Source of the DNA: an uncultured virus (IMG/VR IMGVR_UViG_3300032084_002349)
Lineage: Duplodnaviria > Heunggongvirae > Uroviricota > Caudoviricetes
IMG/VR virus record: IMGVR_UViG_3300032084_002349
Coordinates: 1 to 64,000 of that record
DNA: 64,000 bases
Direction: 5' to 3' (one strand)
Shown here: in pieces, positions 39,032-58,829 of the stretch
Layout: each line of letters opens with the position of its first letter
Numbering within the stretch: the first letter of the stretch is position 1
Made by a program: the position numbers and the translations under genes
Notes under the pieces: model-generated
Told to the model about the DNA's origin: nothing
What the model saw: only the letters and a program-made list of their open reading frames with translations
Databases searched by the model: none

Positions 39032-39346
39032 ACATGGCACGGAAGAGTTACCCAAGTATTCAAGCCCAAGATTGTGATACGATAAGGCTTTATCGTCAAA
39101 CATTCGGAGATACTTGTAGGGTGCAAGTCCCTAGTGCGATGGCCGTACATTAAGACGGATAAGGCGTATACCACCTTGGTAACCTGATAGGTATACGGGA
39201 AAGAATTGCCCTAGTACGGGTAATACCTAAGTCCTACTACATAAACAACTGGTGACCTCTGAGGAGCGTACTCCACTGGGAACGGGGGAGTTCTATACCT
39301 TCCGGCTAGGCCGGGGAAGATTGGACCAACATCGTATAGACGCCAG
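39032..39346 (+). ncRNA. Candidate large structured ncRNA with a tRNA-like 5' domain
   Basis: Own promoter, no long ORF, raised GC, many helices including the T-arm-like TAGGG-TGCAAGT-CCCTA. Confidence 0.6.
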
Positions 39347-39455
39347 CTTGTTTTACCTAATCCTATAGGATTGGTGGCGATGGTGATAGTCAGCGAAAAA
39401 CTAAAGTATTGACAATAGTCTGTCGATAATGTATACTAGGGGAAAGGAGATAATT

Positions 39456-39808: not shown

Positions 39809-40216
39809 ATGGTTGGTTTTGAATACAAAGTACGGTTTCACTTGCAACGTGGTCAGCACTATATGCACTGGCAGATCAAGGCATATGATGGCACACTCTC
39901 GTATATTGATCCACAAAAGTATCAGATTGAGATGAGAGGCTGCACACTAATCAATAAGAAAAATGCTGCCAAGAAAGTTCATGCGGCAGGCAAGAAGGAT
40001 GTTTGTGGTTGGGTAGAGTGTGAGAATTTTGATATACTAGAAAAAGACAGTTTACCTATTGACAACTTAGAAAGATTGTTGTATAATCCAATAGTCGAGC
40101 CAAGTTGGAGACGACAAGAGGACGATGGTGATTTTGACTGGGACAACTATCACTTTGATATGTTGGTAACAGATGGTAACAGAGTGCATATTGTAGAGGA
40201 GAGATGTTATGCCTAA
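39809..40216 (+). CDS. Hypothetical phage protein
   Basis: KVRFHLQRGQHYMHWQI; promoter and RBS. Confidence 0.6.
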   Translation: MVGFEYKVRFHLQRGQHYMHWQIKAYDGTLSYIDPQKYQIEMRGCTLINKKNAAKKVHAAGKKDVCGWVECENFDILEKDSLPIDNLERLLYNPIVEPSWRRQEDDGDFDWDNYHFDMLVTDGNRVHIVEERCYA

Positions 40217-40724
40217 CTGGTGCATGAATAAATTGACTGTAATACACGAAGACAAGTCTATGATAGACAAGTTAGAAAAAGCCTATCGGAATGATTGGAC
40301 TATCGAGACTTTCTACCCTACTCCAAGAGATCCCGGTGATCCAACCATGATGATGGGTGAAGGTAAAGCGATGAGTAAAGACGATAACCCAAATAACAAC
40401 TGGTATCTATGGAGACTAGCAAATTGGGGTACAAAATGGGACGTTGGGTGTCAAGATGGATATGGTCTGGAGCCAACTAGGGTAGACAATGAACTTAGTA
40501 TGACGTTCGATAGTGCATGGAATCCTCCGCTGGGATTTTATGAGAGGCTGGTAGCCTTGGGATTTGATGTACAAGCGTCATATTTTGAGCCAGGGATGAG
40601 TTTTGCCGGAATATGGCATAATGGTGAGGATAATTTTTATGAGGGTCACTGGAACGATTTTCCAGAGTCTTTGAGAGATGAGTTCAGTATGCACGAATAC
40701 TATGATACTATGGAGGAAACGTAA
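40209..40724 (+). CDS. DUF1281/YubB ferredoxin-like-fold protein
   Basis: MPNWCMN...NWGTKWD...FDSAWNPP. Confidence 0.75.
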   Translation: MPNWCMNKLTVIHEDKSMIDKLEKAYRNDWTIETFYPTPRDPGDPTMMMGEGKAMSKDDNPNNNWYLWRLANWGTKWDVGCQDGYGLEPTRVDNELSMTFDSAWNPPLGFYERLVALGFDVQASYFEPGMSFAGIWHNGEDNFYEGHWNDFPESLRDEFSMHEYYDTMEET

Positions 40725-40760
40725 TACAAAACATATAGTAAGGGTAGCACCCTTGCTATA

Positions 40761-40922
40761 GGACGGTGACTGAAAGTGTGCTGGCCCGCATGAGGGTACA
40801 ACAGTACGCGAATCCTTACCAACGGGCAAGTGCTTGAGGTTTGGGCTAGCGGTGCGAAGTAGGGAACTATGACATATCATGCCCTGAAAAGTTGGAGGTA
40901 GAAAAAGAAGTCCTCCCCGTCC
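40761..40922 (+). ncRNA. Candidate multi-helix structured ncRNA
   Basis: Closing stem GGACGG/CCGTCC enclosing four hairpins with G-U pairs. Confidence 0.55.
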
Positions 40923-40930
40923 AATAATAT

Positions 40931-41021
40931 AAGCCGCTTAACGGGCTGGTACAACTCTAGAGACTTGGTAGTTGCAAGACTATTTGAGAGCGTTGAGGAA
41001 ACAGCCTGTGGCGGTTTTTTT
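40931..41021 (+). ncRNA. Candidate long-stem RNA ending in a U tract
   Basis: AAGCCGC/GCGGTTT, ACGGGCTG/CAGCCTGT and a GCAA tetraloop hairpin. Confidence 0.45.
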
Positions 41022-41212
41022 ATGTAAAATCAGCCCGGCCGGATTTTGCGTATAATTTCAATATCAGAGTTATTGCTTAATATAATCACATTCAAGCCAT
41101 TATTTTCTCAAGTTTATGCTATTGACAAGACGATACTATATGATAGAATGATAGCATAAGTGACAAGCACCGTGCAAGTTACTAAAATTGGTTTTATCTT
41201 GGAGAATTTATT

Positions 41213-41500
41213 ATGAAGGCTTTTTCTTTTAATGTGACGATTGCTTCTGAGACTCTCGATACAGAAGTTATTGAAGATACCATTCGTCAAGCACTTACTG
41301 ACGGACTACCTGAAGACACTCTTGCTTTGTGCAAGGCTGACGGTGTTAAGGAATATTCTGAGCAGGGTTGGAAGGTTGCTCGAAACCGTAAGTTCGGTAT
41401 CGGCGTGAAGGAAGCAGGCGATGCTCACAAGGCTACCTCTTCCAAGTCAGAATTGGTAGTGTCAAAAGACACTAGCGATGCTATCCTTCCGGGAGTATAA
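41213..41500 (+). CDS. Hypothetical protein
   Basis: 95 aa; promoter, RBS and terminator. Confidence 0.65.
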   Translation: MKAFSFNVTIASETLDTEVIEDTIRQALTDGLPEDTLALCKADGVKEYSEQGWKVARNRKFGIGVKEAGDAHKATSSKSELVVSKDTSDAILPGV

Positions 41501-41509
41501 TAAGAGGGT

Positions 41510-41558
41510 CAGGGCCGCAGCGTCAATGGGGATAACCAAGACTGCGGCTCTGGCTTTT
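41510..41558 (+). terminator. Terminator-like hairpin
   Basis: CAGGGCCGCAG/CTGCGGCTCTG plus U-run. Confidence 0.55.
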
Positions 41559-41564
41559 ATTATT

Positions 41565-54538: not shown

Positions 54539-56911
54539 ATGAGGTCGTCCTGTATTATCTTTGTGTTATTATCTGGATCATTATTTGCCCAAGACAACGG
54601 TATAAAGTTTTTTGAACAAAATATTAAGCCAGTTTTGACCACTCAATGTTATTCTTGTCACTCTTCCAATTCTAAAGATGTAAAGGGTGGATTGTCTGTA
54701 GATACTAGGCAAGGCATATTAAACGGTGGTGATTCTGGCCCATCAGTTGTTCCCGGTAAGATAGATGAGAGTTTGTTATTAGATTATATTGAGTCTGGTG
54801 ATATGCCTCCAGATAATCCTCTCAGCGAAGAAGTTGTCAATAATTTTAGACAATGGATTAAAATGGGTATGCCTGACCCAAGATATAAGCATGAGAATAG
54901 GGCAGTAGAATTAAAGCAGGCTAGAAATTTCTGGGCATTTAAAAAGGTTGCGAGACCTCCTGTAGCCAAATACGATGATGGTACAGAGATAGATGCTATA
55001 TTAAATTTAGAAATAGAAAAGAACAAACTAAAACCAGTAGAGGCAGCAGACGATTATACTATTGTTCGCAGACTTTATTTTGACCTGATTGGTTTGCCAC
55101 CAAGTATTGAACAAATAAAAGGCTATACTGATGATACTTCAGAAGATAAGTATGAAAAGTTAGTTGATAGTTTATTGCAAGATGAGGGGTTTGGAGAGAA
55201 ATGGGGACGACACTGGCTTGATGTGGCAAGGTACGCAGAATCATCTGGGCAAGATAGGAATTTAATTAGTCCTTATGCTTGGAGATATAGAGATTATGTT
55301 ATAGATAGTTTTAATCAAGACAAACCATACGATCAATTTATCAAAGAACAAATCGCTGGTGATCTACTACCACATAAAAGTTATGAAGAATATAACAATA
55401 ACAGGATCGCTACAGGATTTTTAACTATAGGTACTAAAAATATACAGGCACAAACCAAACAGTTTGAGGCAGATCGTAATGACGATCAGATAGATGTAAT
55501 CACTAGGGGTTTTCTAGGTATGACTTTAAGTTGTGCTAGATGCCATGATCATAAGTTTGATCCATTTTCTCAGCAAGACTATTATGGTGTTGCTGGGGTG
55601 TTTAATAATACAGAAAATATGGATGGTTTGTATCGGGGAAATAATAATACTGGATATCTTGGAAACTATGATTATCTTGTGACAAAAGAAACAGAAGATT
55701 TATATAAGAAGAAAAAAATAGAGGAATGGTTTTTATTATGTGATATTAAAAATTTACAGACACAAATAGATTCTATTAAAACATGGAATAAAAGAGCAAC
55801 AGAACAACAATTAGATAAAGAATTAGGAAAAAGAGAAAAACAACTAACAGAAAAGATGAATAAACTAAAAGAGATTACTGGCAAGGAAGAATTTCCTACG
55901 CTAGAATATCTTGAGCCGGTTATGTCTGTTAAAGATAAAGAAAAAATGAGCGAGGTTAAGTTAGCGATCAGAGGAGAGGTAAATAATCTGGGTGATGAAG
56001 TACCTAGAAGATTACCAGAAATATTTAGCGATAGACCTAATCTTAATTTTGATAATACCAGTGGACGATATGAGTTTGCGGAATGGATAACGCATAAAAC
56101 TAATCCATTAACTTATAGGGTTCATGTTAATAGGGTATGGAGACATTTGTTTGGTAAAGGTATACTGGATAGTTTTGATAATTTTGGTATACTTGGTGGA
56201 GAGCCTACTAATCTTAAACTTATGAACTATTTATCCACTAAATTTATTACTGGTAGACTATCAAATAAAAGACTTATAAAAACTATTGTAATGAGCAATG
56301 CTTATAGGCGTAGTAGTAAGTTTGATAAAAATAATTATGAGATTGATCCTGACAATATTTATTTCTGGAGAATGAATGAGAAAAGATTAGAGGCTGAACA
56401 AATTAGGGATTCATTATTATTTGTATCAGGTAAACTAGACGGGTCGCATAAAAATGTAAGTGATTTTCAAACAGGTATAAAAAATCCTAGTAAAGAATTA
56501 AGAAAGTATATTGGAGAAACAAGAGCAAGATCAATTTATATTCCATCGTTAAGAGATAATAAGATTGAGGTGCTGGATATATTTGATAGACCAGATAATA
56601 GTTTGCTTAATGCAGAGAGAAGCGTTACGACAGTTTCTACACAAGCGTTATTTCTAATGAATAATCCTAAGATTATAGCATTGGCACAAGAAGAAGCCAA
56701 AGTATTGATTGAACATAATAAAAAGATGGGTAAAACCATGCCCAGTATATTATATCGCAACAACATAAATAAAATATTTCTAAAGTTTTTAGGTCGTCCA
56801 CCGACAGAGCAAGAGAATAAAAAATCTATAGAGTTTATTAAACAAGATAGCGATCTTGCCAAACTTATTCAAATAATAATCTGTACAGGAGAATTTAGAA
56901 ATATTAAATGA
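54539..56911 (+). CDS. Planctomycete cytochrome c + DUF1549 (PSCyt2) + DUF1553 (PSD1) protein
   Basis: Signal peptide, heme motifs CYSCH and CARCHDHKFDP, RRLYFDLIGLPP, WGRHWLDVARYAES, NPLTYRVHVNRVW. Confidence 0.92.
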   Translation: MRSSCIIFVLLSGSLFAQDNGIKFFEQNIKPVLTTQCYSCHSSNSKDVKGGLSVDTRQGILNGGDSGPSVVPGKIDESLLLDYIESGDMPPDNPLSEEVVNNFRQWIKMGMPDPRYKHENRAVELKQARNFWAFKKVARPPVAKYDDGTEIDAILNLEIEKNKLKPVEAADDYTIVRRLYFDLIGLPPSIEQIKGYTDDTSEDKYEKLVDSLLQDEGFGEKWGRHWLDVARYAESSGQDRNLISPYAWRYRDYVIDSFNQDKPYDQFIKEQIAGDLLPHKSYEEYNNNRIATGFLTIGTKNIQAQTKQFEADRNDDQIDVITRGFLGMTLSCARCHDHKFDPFSQQDYYGVAGVFNNTENMDGLYRGNNNTGYLGNYDYLVTKETEDLYKKKKIEEWFLLCDIKNLQTQIDSIKTWNKRATEQQLDKELGKREKQLTEKMNKLKEITGKEEFPTLEYLEPVMSVKDKEKMSEVKLAIRGEVNNLGDEVPRRLPEIFSDRPNLNFDNTSGRYEFAEWITHKTNPLTYRVHVNRVWRHLFGKGILDSFDNFGILGGEPTNLKLMNYLSTKFITGRLSNKRLIKTIVMSNAYRRSSKFDKNNYEIDPDNIYFWRMNEKRLEAEQIRDSLLFVSGKLDGSHKNVSDFQTGIKNPSKELRKYIGETRARSIYIPSLRDNKIEVLDIFDRPDNSLLNAERSVTTVSTQALFLMNNPKIIALAQEEAKVLIEHNKKMGKTMPSILYRNNINKIFLKFLGRPPTEQENKKSIEFIKQDSDLAKLIQIIICTGEFRNIK

Positions 56912-57531
56912 AGTATATTAAAACAAAATTTATGATAACTTCATCACAAAAAAATAAATATTTGTGGTTCAGGGTTGCGAAAGCAGCAACAACAACGATT
57001 CTTTCCCACTTATGCCAACATACTAAAATAAGTTTTTGTAATAGAATTAATATATATCAGAACGATGAAAATGTTTGGCAGGAATATCTGCTATGGAAAA
57101 ACCGAATGTATTCTGATAATTATTTTAAATTTGCTTTTGTTAGAAACCCTTGGGATAGATTAGTTAGTTGTTATTTTAATAAAATGGAGGATGGTTATGA
57201 GAACTTCAATAAGAATAACTTTAAAACATTTGATAAGTTTATACATTATATAAGAAATGTAAAGACTAAGACATGCGATAGACATTATAGGTTACAAACA
57301 GAATTGTATCCTATTGATCAAATAGATTTTGTAGGTCGTTTTGAAAATTTTGCAAATGATCTTGGTTTTGTGTGTGATGCAATAGGTATGCCCAAACGTA
57401 AGAAATTTAAAACAATGCACAAATCCAAACACAGACCATATCAAGAATATTATAATGAGGAAACTCAACAAATAGTTAAAGACAAATATGAACAAGATAT
57501 AGAATTATTAAACTATAAATTCGGAGAGTAA
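56908..57531 (+). CDS. Sulfotransferase family 2 protein
   Basis: RVAKAATTTI; FVRNPWDRLVSCY. Confidence 0.88.
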   Translation: MKYIKTKFMITSSQKNKYLWFRVAKAATTTILSHLCQHTKISFCNRINIYQNDENVWQEYLLWKNRMYSDNYFKFAFVRNPWDRLVSCYFNKMEDGYENFNKNNFKTFDKFIHYIRNVKTKTCDRHYRLQTELYPIDQIDFVGRFENFANDLGFVCDAIGMPKRKKFKTMHKSKHRPYQEYYNEETQQIVKDKYEQDIELLNYKFGE

Positions 57532-57533
57532 AT

Positions 57534-58829
57534 ATGTTAAATAGAAGAAGTTTATTACAAGCCAGTAGTTTTGGTTTCGGTATGTTAGCATTAAAAGGAT
57601 TAATGGCAGAAGAGGCTATGAAAAGTAATAAGAGAGTTATATTCATGTATATGAATGGTGGTATGACTCATACTGATACTTTTGATCATAAGCCTTTAAT
57701 GGTAGAAAAAGCAGGTATAGATGATCCTGTAAGTAAAGGTAGAAAGATTATGAAACCGGGAGTGCCTTTAACTCCAGCAGGAGATAGCGGCATAGAAATT
57801 AGCGAGAACTTCCCACACTTGCGTAAACATGCAGATGATTTATGTCTGTTGAATGGTATGAAGAGTAAAACAGGTAATCATAATCAAGCAAGAAGTTTAT
57901 TACATACCGGGAATTTTCAATTCAGTAGACCTAGTATGGGTAGTTGGTTATTGTATGGATTAGGCACAGAGAATAAAGAGTTGCCGGGGTTTATAACTAT
58001 AGATGCTAACATTGGGCCTGATAATTATGGTAGTTCATTCTTACCAGCAGTATATCAAGGCACTGCTATTAATGCTGGTAGTAAAAGTGCTATACCTAAT
58101 CTTGTAAATACATCTACAACTAAAGACAGACAAAGAAAAGATTTAGATTTATTAAGAGACTTTAACCAGATGCACCTAAAAGATGGTGCAGAAAATGGTA
58201 GACTAGAAGGATTGATTGAGAGTTATGAGTTGGCTTTTAGGATGCAGACAAGTGTTCCTAATACTATTGATATATCAAAAGAATCGCAACAAACCTTACA
58301 GAAGTATGGTATCAATGATAAAGCCACTGCTAAATTTGGCAAACAGTGTTTATTAGCAAAGAAATTTAGTGAAGCAGGAGTTAGATTCGTAGAGATTGGT
58401 CATGGTGGATGGGATATGCACCAGAACATTAATGATAATTTAAAAAAGAATACTTCTGCTATTGATAAACCTATCGCTGCTTTGATCCAAGACTTAAAAG
58501 ATTCTGGATTATTTGAAGATACAATTATATTATTTGGAAGTGAGTTTGGCAGAACTCCCGGTATAAAAGAAGGAGCAACAGGTAGAGATCATAATAATAG
58601 TGGATTTTCTATGTGGATGGCAGGTGGTGGTGTTAAAGGTGGTATGAGATATGGTTCTACTGATGATTTTGGGCATAAAGCAGTGGATGGTATGGACATG
58701 CATGATTTACATGCTACTATATTACATCTAATGGGTATTGACCATAGTAAATTAACATATAGATATAGTGGTAGAGACTTTAGACTAACTGATGTATTTG
58801 GTAACATTCAACACGATATTATAGCATAA
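57534..58829 (+). CDS. DUF1501 family protein (Tat-exported)
   Basis: LNRRSLL twin-Arg signal, GGMTHTDTFD, GWDMH, SEFGRTP, GRDH, DLHATILHLMG. Confidence 0.92.
   Translation: MLNRRSLLQASSFGFGMLALKGLMAEEAMKSNKRVIFMYMNGGMTHTDTFDHKPLMVEKAGIDDPVSKGRKIMKPGVPLTPAGDSGIEISENFPHLRKHADDLCLLNGMKSKTGNHNQARSLLHTGNFQFSRPSMGSWLLYGLGTENKELPGFITIDANIGPDNYGSSFLPAVYQGTAINAGSKSAIPNLVNTSTTKDRQRKDLDLLRDFNQMHLKDGAENGRLEGLIESYELAFRMQTSVPNTIDISKESQQTLQKYGINDKATAKFGKQCLLAKKFSEAGVRFVEIGHGGWDMHQNINDNLKKNTSAIDKPIAALIQDLKDSGLFEDTIILFGSEFGRTPGIKEGATGRDHNNSGFSMWMAGGGVKGGMRYGSTDDFGHKAVDGMDMHDLHATILHLMGIDHSKLTYRYSGRDFRLTDVFGNIQHDIIA

Follow-up and report, generated by a model that had tools for sequence, protein, structure and literature searches.

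A simplified manA-type RNA of an uncultured marine phage, apparently without one of the contacts used in cage assembly

What a folded, gene-free interval of a phage genome encodes, and whether it serves the genes beside it or acts by itself, is the question raised by a locus of an uncultured marine phage that lies within a block of short plus-strand genes with σ70-type promoter sites. The window, meaning the whole 64,000-nucleotide stretch analyzed here, covers the opening 64 kb of a virus record of 117,168 bases, that of a tailed phage with a terminase large subunit gene, four tRNAs, and one tmRNA (genome position 71618; tag ADTSVLALAA). The phage carries PSCyt1/PSCyt2/PSD1 and DUF1501 genes (54539-58829 of the window), which are typical of Planctomycetes; its host is therefore probably a Planctomycete. 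A preliminary description of the locus proposed a plus-strand, multi-helix non-coding RNA of unknown class at 40740-40922, closed by GGACGG/CCGUCC; comparative data bear out both the non-coding RNA and its closing helix.

The plus-strand interval 40734-40922 (189 nt) is a conserved, folded non-coding RNA. The 5' boundary first given, 40740, was too far in and missed a hairpin at 40734-40760; folded from that boundary, the sequence does not stand out from its shuffles (z -1.41; 21 of 200 as good), whereas with the 11-bp 5' hairpin included it does (z -3.80; 0 of 200). Thirteen close variants have folding z-scores of -1.2 to -4.7 (60 shuffles each). The minus strand of the candidate region has no folding signal over shuffles (z -0.44), for which reason a minus-strand RNA was dropped. 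As first described, there is no plausible ORF with a ribosome binding site: the ORF list of the window holds none on the plus strand of the RNA region, and the 100-codon minus-strand frame 40578-40880, which overlaps with a genuine gene on the plus strand, is taken to be a shadow frame. A/C-rich, G-poor linkers precede (40725-40733) and follow (40923-40930) the RNA on the plus strand; both are nearly G-free in the 18 loci listed and are putative processing sites.

Conserved homologs of the RNA exist. Pattern scans of viral and metagenome contigs returned at least 294 motif matches; 94 of the matches listed were dropped for missing closing helices, and the remainder gave 142 distinct sequences, comprising, among the matches listed, 70 canonical manA RNAs, 13 members of the window subtype, of which one matches the window exactly, and 59 other relatives. 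Inspection by eye restored L268 from among the dropped matches, and a whole-record search supplied L349. A blastn search of annotated phages yielded only one 23-nt chance match, and an exact-pattern scan of bacterial and archaeal genomes gave 21 loci with no credible match to model R1, described below (best 10.7 bits). The same model finds a single copy of the RNA in the genome of the window.

At the gathering level, Rfam finds three tRNAs in the window and nothing else; in E-value mode the best match of the RNA is manA (RF01745), over the whole model, at 23.5 bits (E 6e-4), which does not reach the gathering threshold of 55.2 bits. Across 20 loci the Rfam manA scores form a continuum from 195.5 to 28.6 in 16, with no match in four; in a 46-kb search with E values as high as 2 admitted, the close variants L245, L255, L324, and L268 give no manA match. 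Model R1 was built from 30 of the 59 non-canonical relatives and no window-type sequence (L117 and L241 among them pass the Rfam cut-off). It scores the window RNA at 102.5 bits (E 3e-24), close variants at 94-105, L268 at 81, and the canonical manA RNAs L003, L011, L026, and L010 at 40-55 bits. The E-value match, the score continuum through these intermediates, and the linking of the window and canonical manA by R1 identify the RNA as a manA homolog in place of the unknown class first suggested; because defining features of manA fail in it, the RNA is not filed as a member of RF01745. By sequence comparison it appears to be a simplified manA homolog without one contact that manA uses for cages.

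The likeness to manA comprises P1, P2 with GUGACUGAA after it, P3, a P4 arm that opens with GU, P8, UUG, and P9 with GG-UA...CC, as well as a length of about 190 nt, occurrence in marine phage, and L3-L8 complementarity, which is also found in canonical copies. In contrast, the RNA has an unbranched single arm where manA has a P4-closed junction of three hairpins (P5/P6/P7), shows no evident L8-L9 pairing in the window subtype, lies at the 3' end of a cassette or before tmRNA and not in a potential 5' UTR, and belongs to a probable Planctomycete phage as opposed to a cyanophage or Photobacterium. None of the 14 subtype sequences carries the L5-L7 motif GGUGGU..ACCA, which is present in 1 of the 59 other non-canonical sequences and in 70 of 70 canonical ones, the canonical set having been defined by the GGUGGU part. 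ROOL, GOLLD, and OLE, named among structured RNAs in passages of a preprint (bioRxiv 10.64898/2026.07.01.735769), are likewise phage- or tRNA-associated, protein-free folded RNAs with loop-loop contacts, but they are several hundred nucleotides long, and Rfam matches none of them in the window at the gathering level, nor over the locus when E is allowed to reach 10. Literature searches listed no paper on the reduced subtype, passages of PMC7779021, PMC7657543, PMC9964418, and PMC10690425 being among the text covered; supplements 1-4 of the last may hold fragments, and the supplements of the preprint may show a reduced variant. A literal search of the manA part of supplement 5 of Weinberg et al. 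(PMC2864571) gave no subtype motif, alignment gaps defeating such searches.

The manA-type fold can be followed along the plus strand. P1 (40734-40760) is the 5' hairpin, with a UAGCA loop and double-sided changes at 8 of its 11 pairs in 13 variants. The closing helix P2 (40761-40766 with 40917-40922) is 100% paired with two double-sided changes in 15 sequences, and in 45 sequences 3 of 5 pairs change on both sides. The signature GUGACUGAA (40766-40774) is common to manA and identical to the Rfam consensus, an invariance that is partly by construction because it anchored the searches. P3 (40777-40782 with 40795-40800; 40777-40800 with its 12-nt loop L3) is 98.9% paired, with one double-sided and three single-sided changes in 15 sequences. 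P4 (40804-40809 with 40849-40855; double-sided changes at 3 of 6 pairs), P5 (40811-40820 with 40838-40847), and the P6 hairpin (40823-40836) form one long arm (40804-40855), which R1 aligns in this way without having seen the subtype; P5 and P6 together have double-sided changes at 5 of 13 pairs. P8 (40862-40864 with 40883-40885), which encloses loop L8 (40862-40885 in all), is 100% paired, with G-U replaced by G-C in 2 of 15 sequences, and the P9 hairpin after UUG (40894-40916; A-rich loop) is 99% paired in 45 sequences with two pairs double-sided. Independent support comes from a contig of RNA run X2, in which A40806G and T40853C both fall in P4; it also carries one change that breaks a P5 pair. 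Three features were rejected: a short CC/GG helix in L3, drawn initially, on the sequences of L349 and L268; a tRNA-like CCA end, since P2 takes up the terminal CC and the ends differ in other relatives; and a short leader peptide in P1, since the ATG is found only in L245, L266, and L275.

The helices named in the preliminary description are all in the sequence where placed, and together they make up the minimum-free-energy fold (-70.8 against -58.7 for the homology fold, about 12 kcal/mol better with the pseudoknot not counted). Natural variants nevertheless support the manA-type fold over this one, as far as sequence comparison can tell. Among the 13 close variants, double-sided changes occur at 13 of 59 pairs of the homology fold (8 in P1) and at 0 of 41 of the minimum-energy fold; in 15 sequences with P1 left out the figures are 13 of 45 and 3 of 41, two of the three belonging to the closing helix common to both folds, and all of these counts ignore relatedness. 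About half of the inner helices first named appear to differ from those that evolution preserves: CGGGC/GCTTG and GGAGG/CCTCC stand, whereas GCCC/GGGT finds no support in the variants, which rule out TATGA/TCATG (paired in only 67% of cells), CCAA/TTGG, and the AGGG/CCCT register. Pairing of 96% and a single double-sided change leave the helix GTGTGCTG/CAGTACGC as a possible alternative fold, but it excludes the better-supported P3 and P4.

The RNA is probably a stand-alone accessory non-coding RNA of the phage, homologous to manA, trimmed and stable, that acts in trans through its core. It would be made as the last part of an early-cassette transcript, or ahead of the tmRNA; the transcript would end at a terminator and be trimmed at the unstructured A/C-rich linkers. 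The invariant unpaired core (GUGACUGAA, UUG, and the closing bases of P9) would then serve as a decoy or scaffold that binds a macromolecule of the host or the phage, while L3-L8 would close the monomer as a pseudoknot or join copies. Of the roles guessed at in the preliminary description, scaffold or sponge fits this context, and in some relatives the RNA lies in tandem with phage tmRNA, a hint that its target may be related to translation.

The L3 strand GCAUGA (40788-40793, plus strand) forms a 6-bp loop-loop pairing with UCAUGC of L8 (40877-40882). Double-sided changes occur at 2 of 6 pairs, with a wobble in L245 and compensating changes in L275 and L268, and the loops pair better with their own partners than after swapping (0 of 5000 permutations as good among 28 non-redundant loop types, a set that keeps two mis-parsed rows and in which counts ignore relatedness); loop-swaps in canonical manA, where the loops barely vary, give 262 and 4060 of 5000. 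It is about an even call whether L3-L8 is a pseudoknot that locks the monomer or a kiss that links copies into a dimer or ring. The second case touches on what passages of the preprint (bioRxiv 10.64898/2026.07.01.735769) describe for manA, which self-assembles in vitro into RNA-only cages (8-, 10-, and 60-mers), with pentamers held by L5-L7' and L8-L9', or by L5-L7', L3-L8', and a GNRA contact. A closed cage of this kind, built here by L3-L8' in trans and a two-base self-kiss of the P1 loop, overlaps with a trans-acting RNA and differs solely in claiming closure; it is unlikely. The same passages report L3-L8' as intermolecular in manA_pho34_A767 and variants that reach the same pentamer via different contacts, and P1 loop centers are mostly self-complementary across the manA-type sequences collected (AGCU, CG, GAUC, AAUU, and CAUG; GC here), which suggests an L1-L1' self-kiss. 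However, while the family core and L3-L8 pairing of cage-forming manA are kept in the window RNA, L5-L7', common to both pentamer types, is absent together with the L6 GNRA hairpin (helix numbers being matched to those of the preprint through a count along the Rfam structure line, an inference). Complementarity for an L8-L9 kissing pair is only 2-4 bp in the subtype and varies without compensation, own L8-L9 partners being no better than swapped ones in the wider non-canonical set (563 of 5000 permutations), and an L1-L1' contact is not described in the parts of the preprint text covered. Because L5-L7' is absent, the published pentamer or 60-mer cage is not to be assumed. For the trans-acting RNA, a tentative possibility is a minimal manA that has kept the core and L3-L8 and lost the pentamer interface, the job of the core (on a conserved host factor) being conserved and the cage optional; alternatively, it may form a simpler assembly through L3-L8' only.

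Upstream of the RNA lies a 171-aa gene (40209-40724, plus strand; no Pfam family; phrog_20518, of unknown function), and the locus continues with the 9-nt linker, the RNA, a hairpin, a promoter-like site, and the next gene. The nearest candidate promoter for the 171-aa gene and the RNA is a σ70-type promoter-like site on the plus strand, TTGACA-17-TATAAT (40059-40087; 12 of 12 consensus match), inside the upstream ORF; its -150 offset is unchanged in all 7 loci examined, of which one is identical to the window, a constancy to which protein-level conservation could contribute. The long terminator-like hairpin (40931-41021, plus strand; z -3.41) ends in a U run and is too long for a simple terminator scan; its sequence is not conserved, and different hairpins replace it at the same place in relatives. 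A 1.5-kb stretch has 5-15% of its words in common with each of 24 RNA-labelled runs, and contigs of related strains cover the RNA in three of the four runs compared, from four studies (X2, X12, and X16; marine), those of X2 and X16 at least extending past both ends; run X9 has no contig over the RNA. Such contigs, which reveal no strand, ends, or level and could derive from DNA, are consistent with expression.

This arrangement could also suit a cis-acting 3' element, in which the fold stays on the mRNA and stabilizes or controls the upstream transcript. The subtype nearly always begins about 10 nt after a stop codon and is followed by a terminator-like hairpin, the RNA-library contigs reach into the upstream gene, and the upstream ORF of L275 and of L349 extends across P1 to end at the UGA of GUGACUGAA (TGA within GTGACTGAA), so that ribosomes would unfold the 5' end of the RNA while it is in mRNA. 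Such an element is nonetheless decidedly unlikely: the RNA follows unrelated genes in different phages (upstream genes differ in L263 and L265) and lies between gene and tmRNA in L263 and L349, and canonical manA often has a promoter directly upstream (46 of 67) or sits in tRNA arrays (L010 and L104) with no mRNA to protect.

Within one phage clade, the RNA is found at either of two genomic sites. In L168-L171 (78-79% protein identity) the two flanking genes are adjacent with no RNA between them; one of these genomes (G002) has a diverged copy 16 nt before the tmRNA, and the remaining three records are fragments, 6-40% complete. L349 and L263 have the RNA 16-17 nt before the tmRNA, and in the genome of the window the stop codon of the homologous gene abuts the tmRNA directly, the site being empty of RNA. 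The complete records of related, more distant phages G005 and G006 give no RNA match. The best reading is that the RNA moves as its own small unit and is not a regulator of a neighboring gene.

A riboswitch or leader for the downstream gene, possibly switching between P3 with P4 and the helix GUGUGCUG/CAGUACGC, is highly improbable here. The manA family is listed as cis-regulatory and a riboswitch candidate in the manA passages of Weinberg et al. (2010; PMC2864571), and an ORF starts within 60 nt in 37 of 57 other non-canonical relatives, which makes a leader-like position common in the rest of the family. The alternative helix is part of the energy minimum; across 15 sequences it keeps 96% pairing and shows a single double-sided change. 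Against this, the window RNA is not in a potential 5' UTR: the 290 nt between it and the next gene (41213-41500, plus strand) hold the variable, non-overlapping terminator-like hairpin and a separate promoter-like site for that gene (41122-41149, plus strand), present too in relatives without the RNA. Among 12 close variants with enough downstream sequence, six have a terminator-like hairpin by a crude rule, six a promoter-like site before the next ORF, and two an ORF within 60 nt; that of L324 begins 22 nt after the RNA. L255 breaks the alternative helix and other branches do not conserve it (a mean of 3.9 bp for own arms against 3.7 bp for swapped ones, 36 arm pairs), and it is therefore read as an alternative or misfold; a conserved conformational switch was rejected for want of any signal beyond the subtype. 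A self-cleaving ribozyme that frees itself or the tmRNA, also among the early guesses, can scarcely be credited: the RNA is compact, possibly pseudoknotted, and next to the tmRNA in some relatives, but no ribozyme family is found at the gathering level or among 7 Rfam matches up to E 10, and the manA passages of PMC2864571 and bioRxiv 10.64898/2026.07.01.735769 mention no catalysis.

Other gene-free features lie near the stand-alone RNA. The spacer after the terminator contains a GC-only box, CAGCCCGGCCGG (41028-41050), with similar boxes in the spacers of relatives; between a 95-aa gene and tRNA-Arg, a very stable hairpin (41503-41560; z -6.49), conserved in L168-L171, is a candidate terminator or tRNA-processing element. 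A second gene-free, promoter-led stretch (39035-39400), probably the first RNA candidate of the preliminary description, has no Rfam family and a z of only -0.64, and is 78-94% conserved in relatives; its 5' part includes a tRNA-like GGTGCAAGTCC hairpin, a 110-nt internal part is missing in L167, and a 309-nt contig of RNA run X2 coincides almost exactly with 39046-39346. In L172-L176, tandem copies of a different structured-looking element, GGACTAGATTGG...CCAATCTATGGGGGAT...CCTCACCACGACC, with AATACAA-type linkers between them and no R1 match, lie 3' of the homolog of the 171-aa gene.

The manA family itself is already known, and the reduced subtype is a variant within it that is invisible to standard Rfam annotation. 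Natural compensatory mutants of the RNA are at hand in L245, L275, L231, L255, L324, and L349. A variant without the main pentamer contact, located outside a 5' UTR and at alternative sites in close relatives, speaks against the leader model for this branch. manA has been labelled a riboswitch candidate and yet forms cages; the reduced variant would separate the core function of the family from cage assembly.
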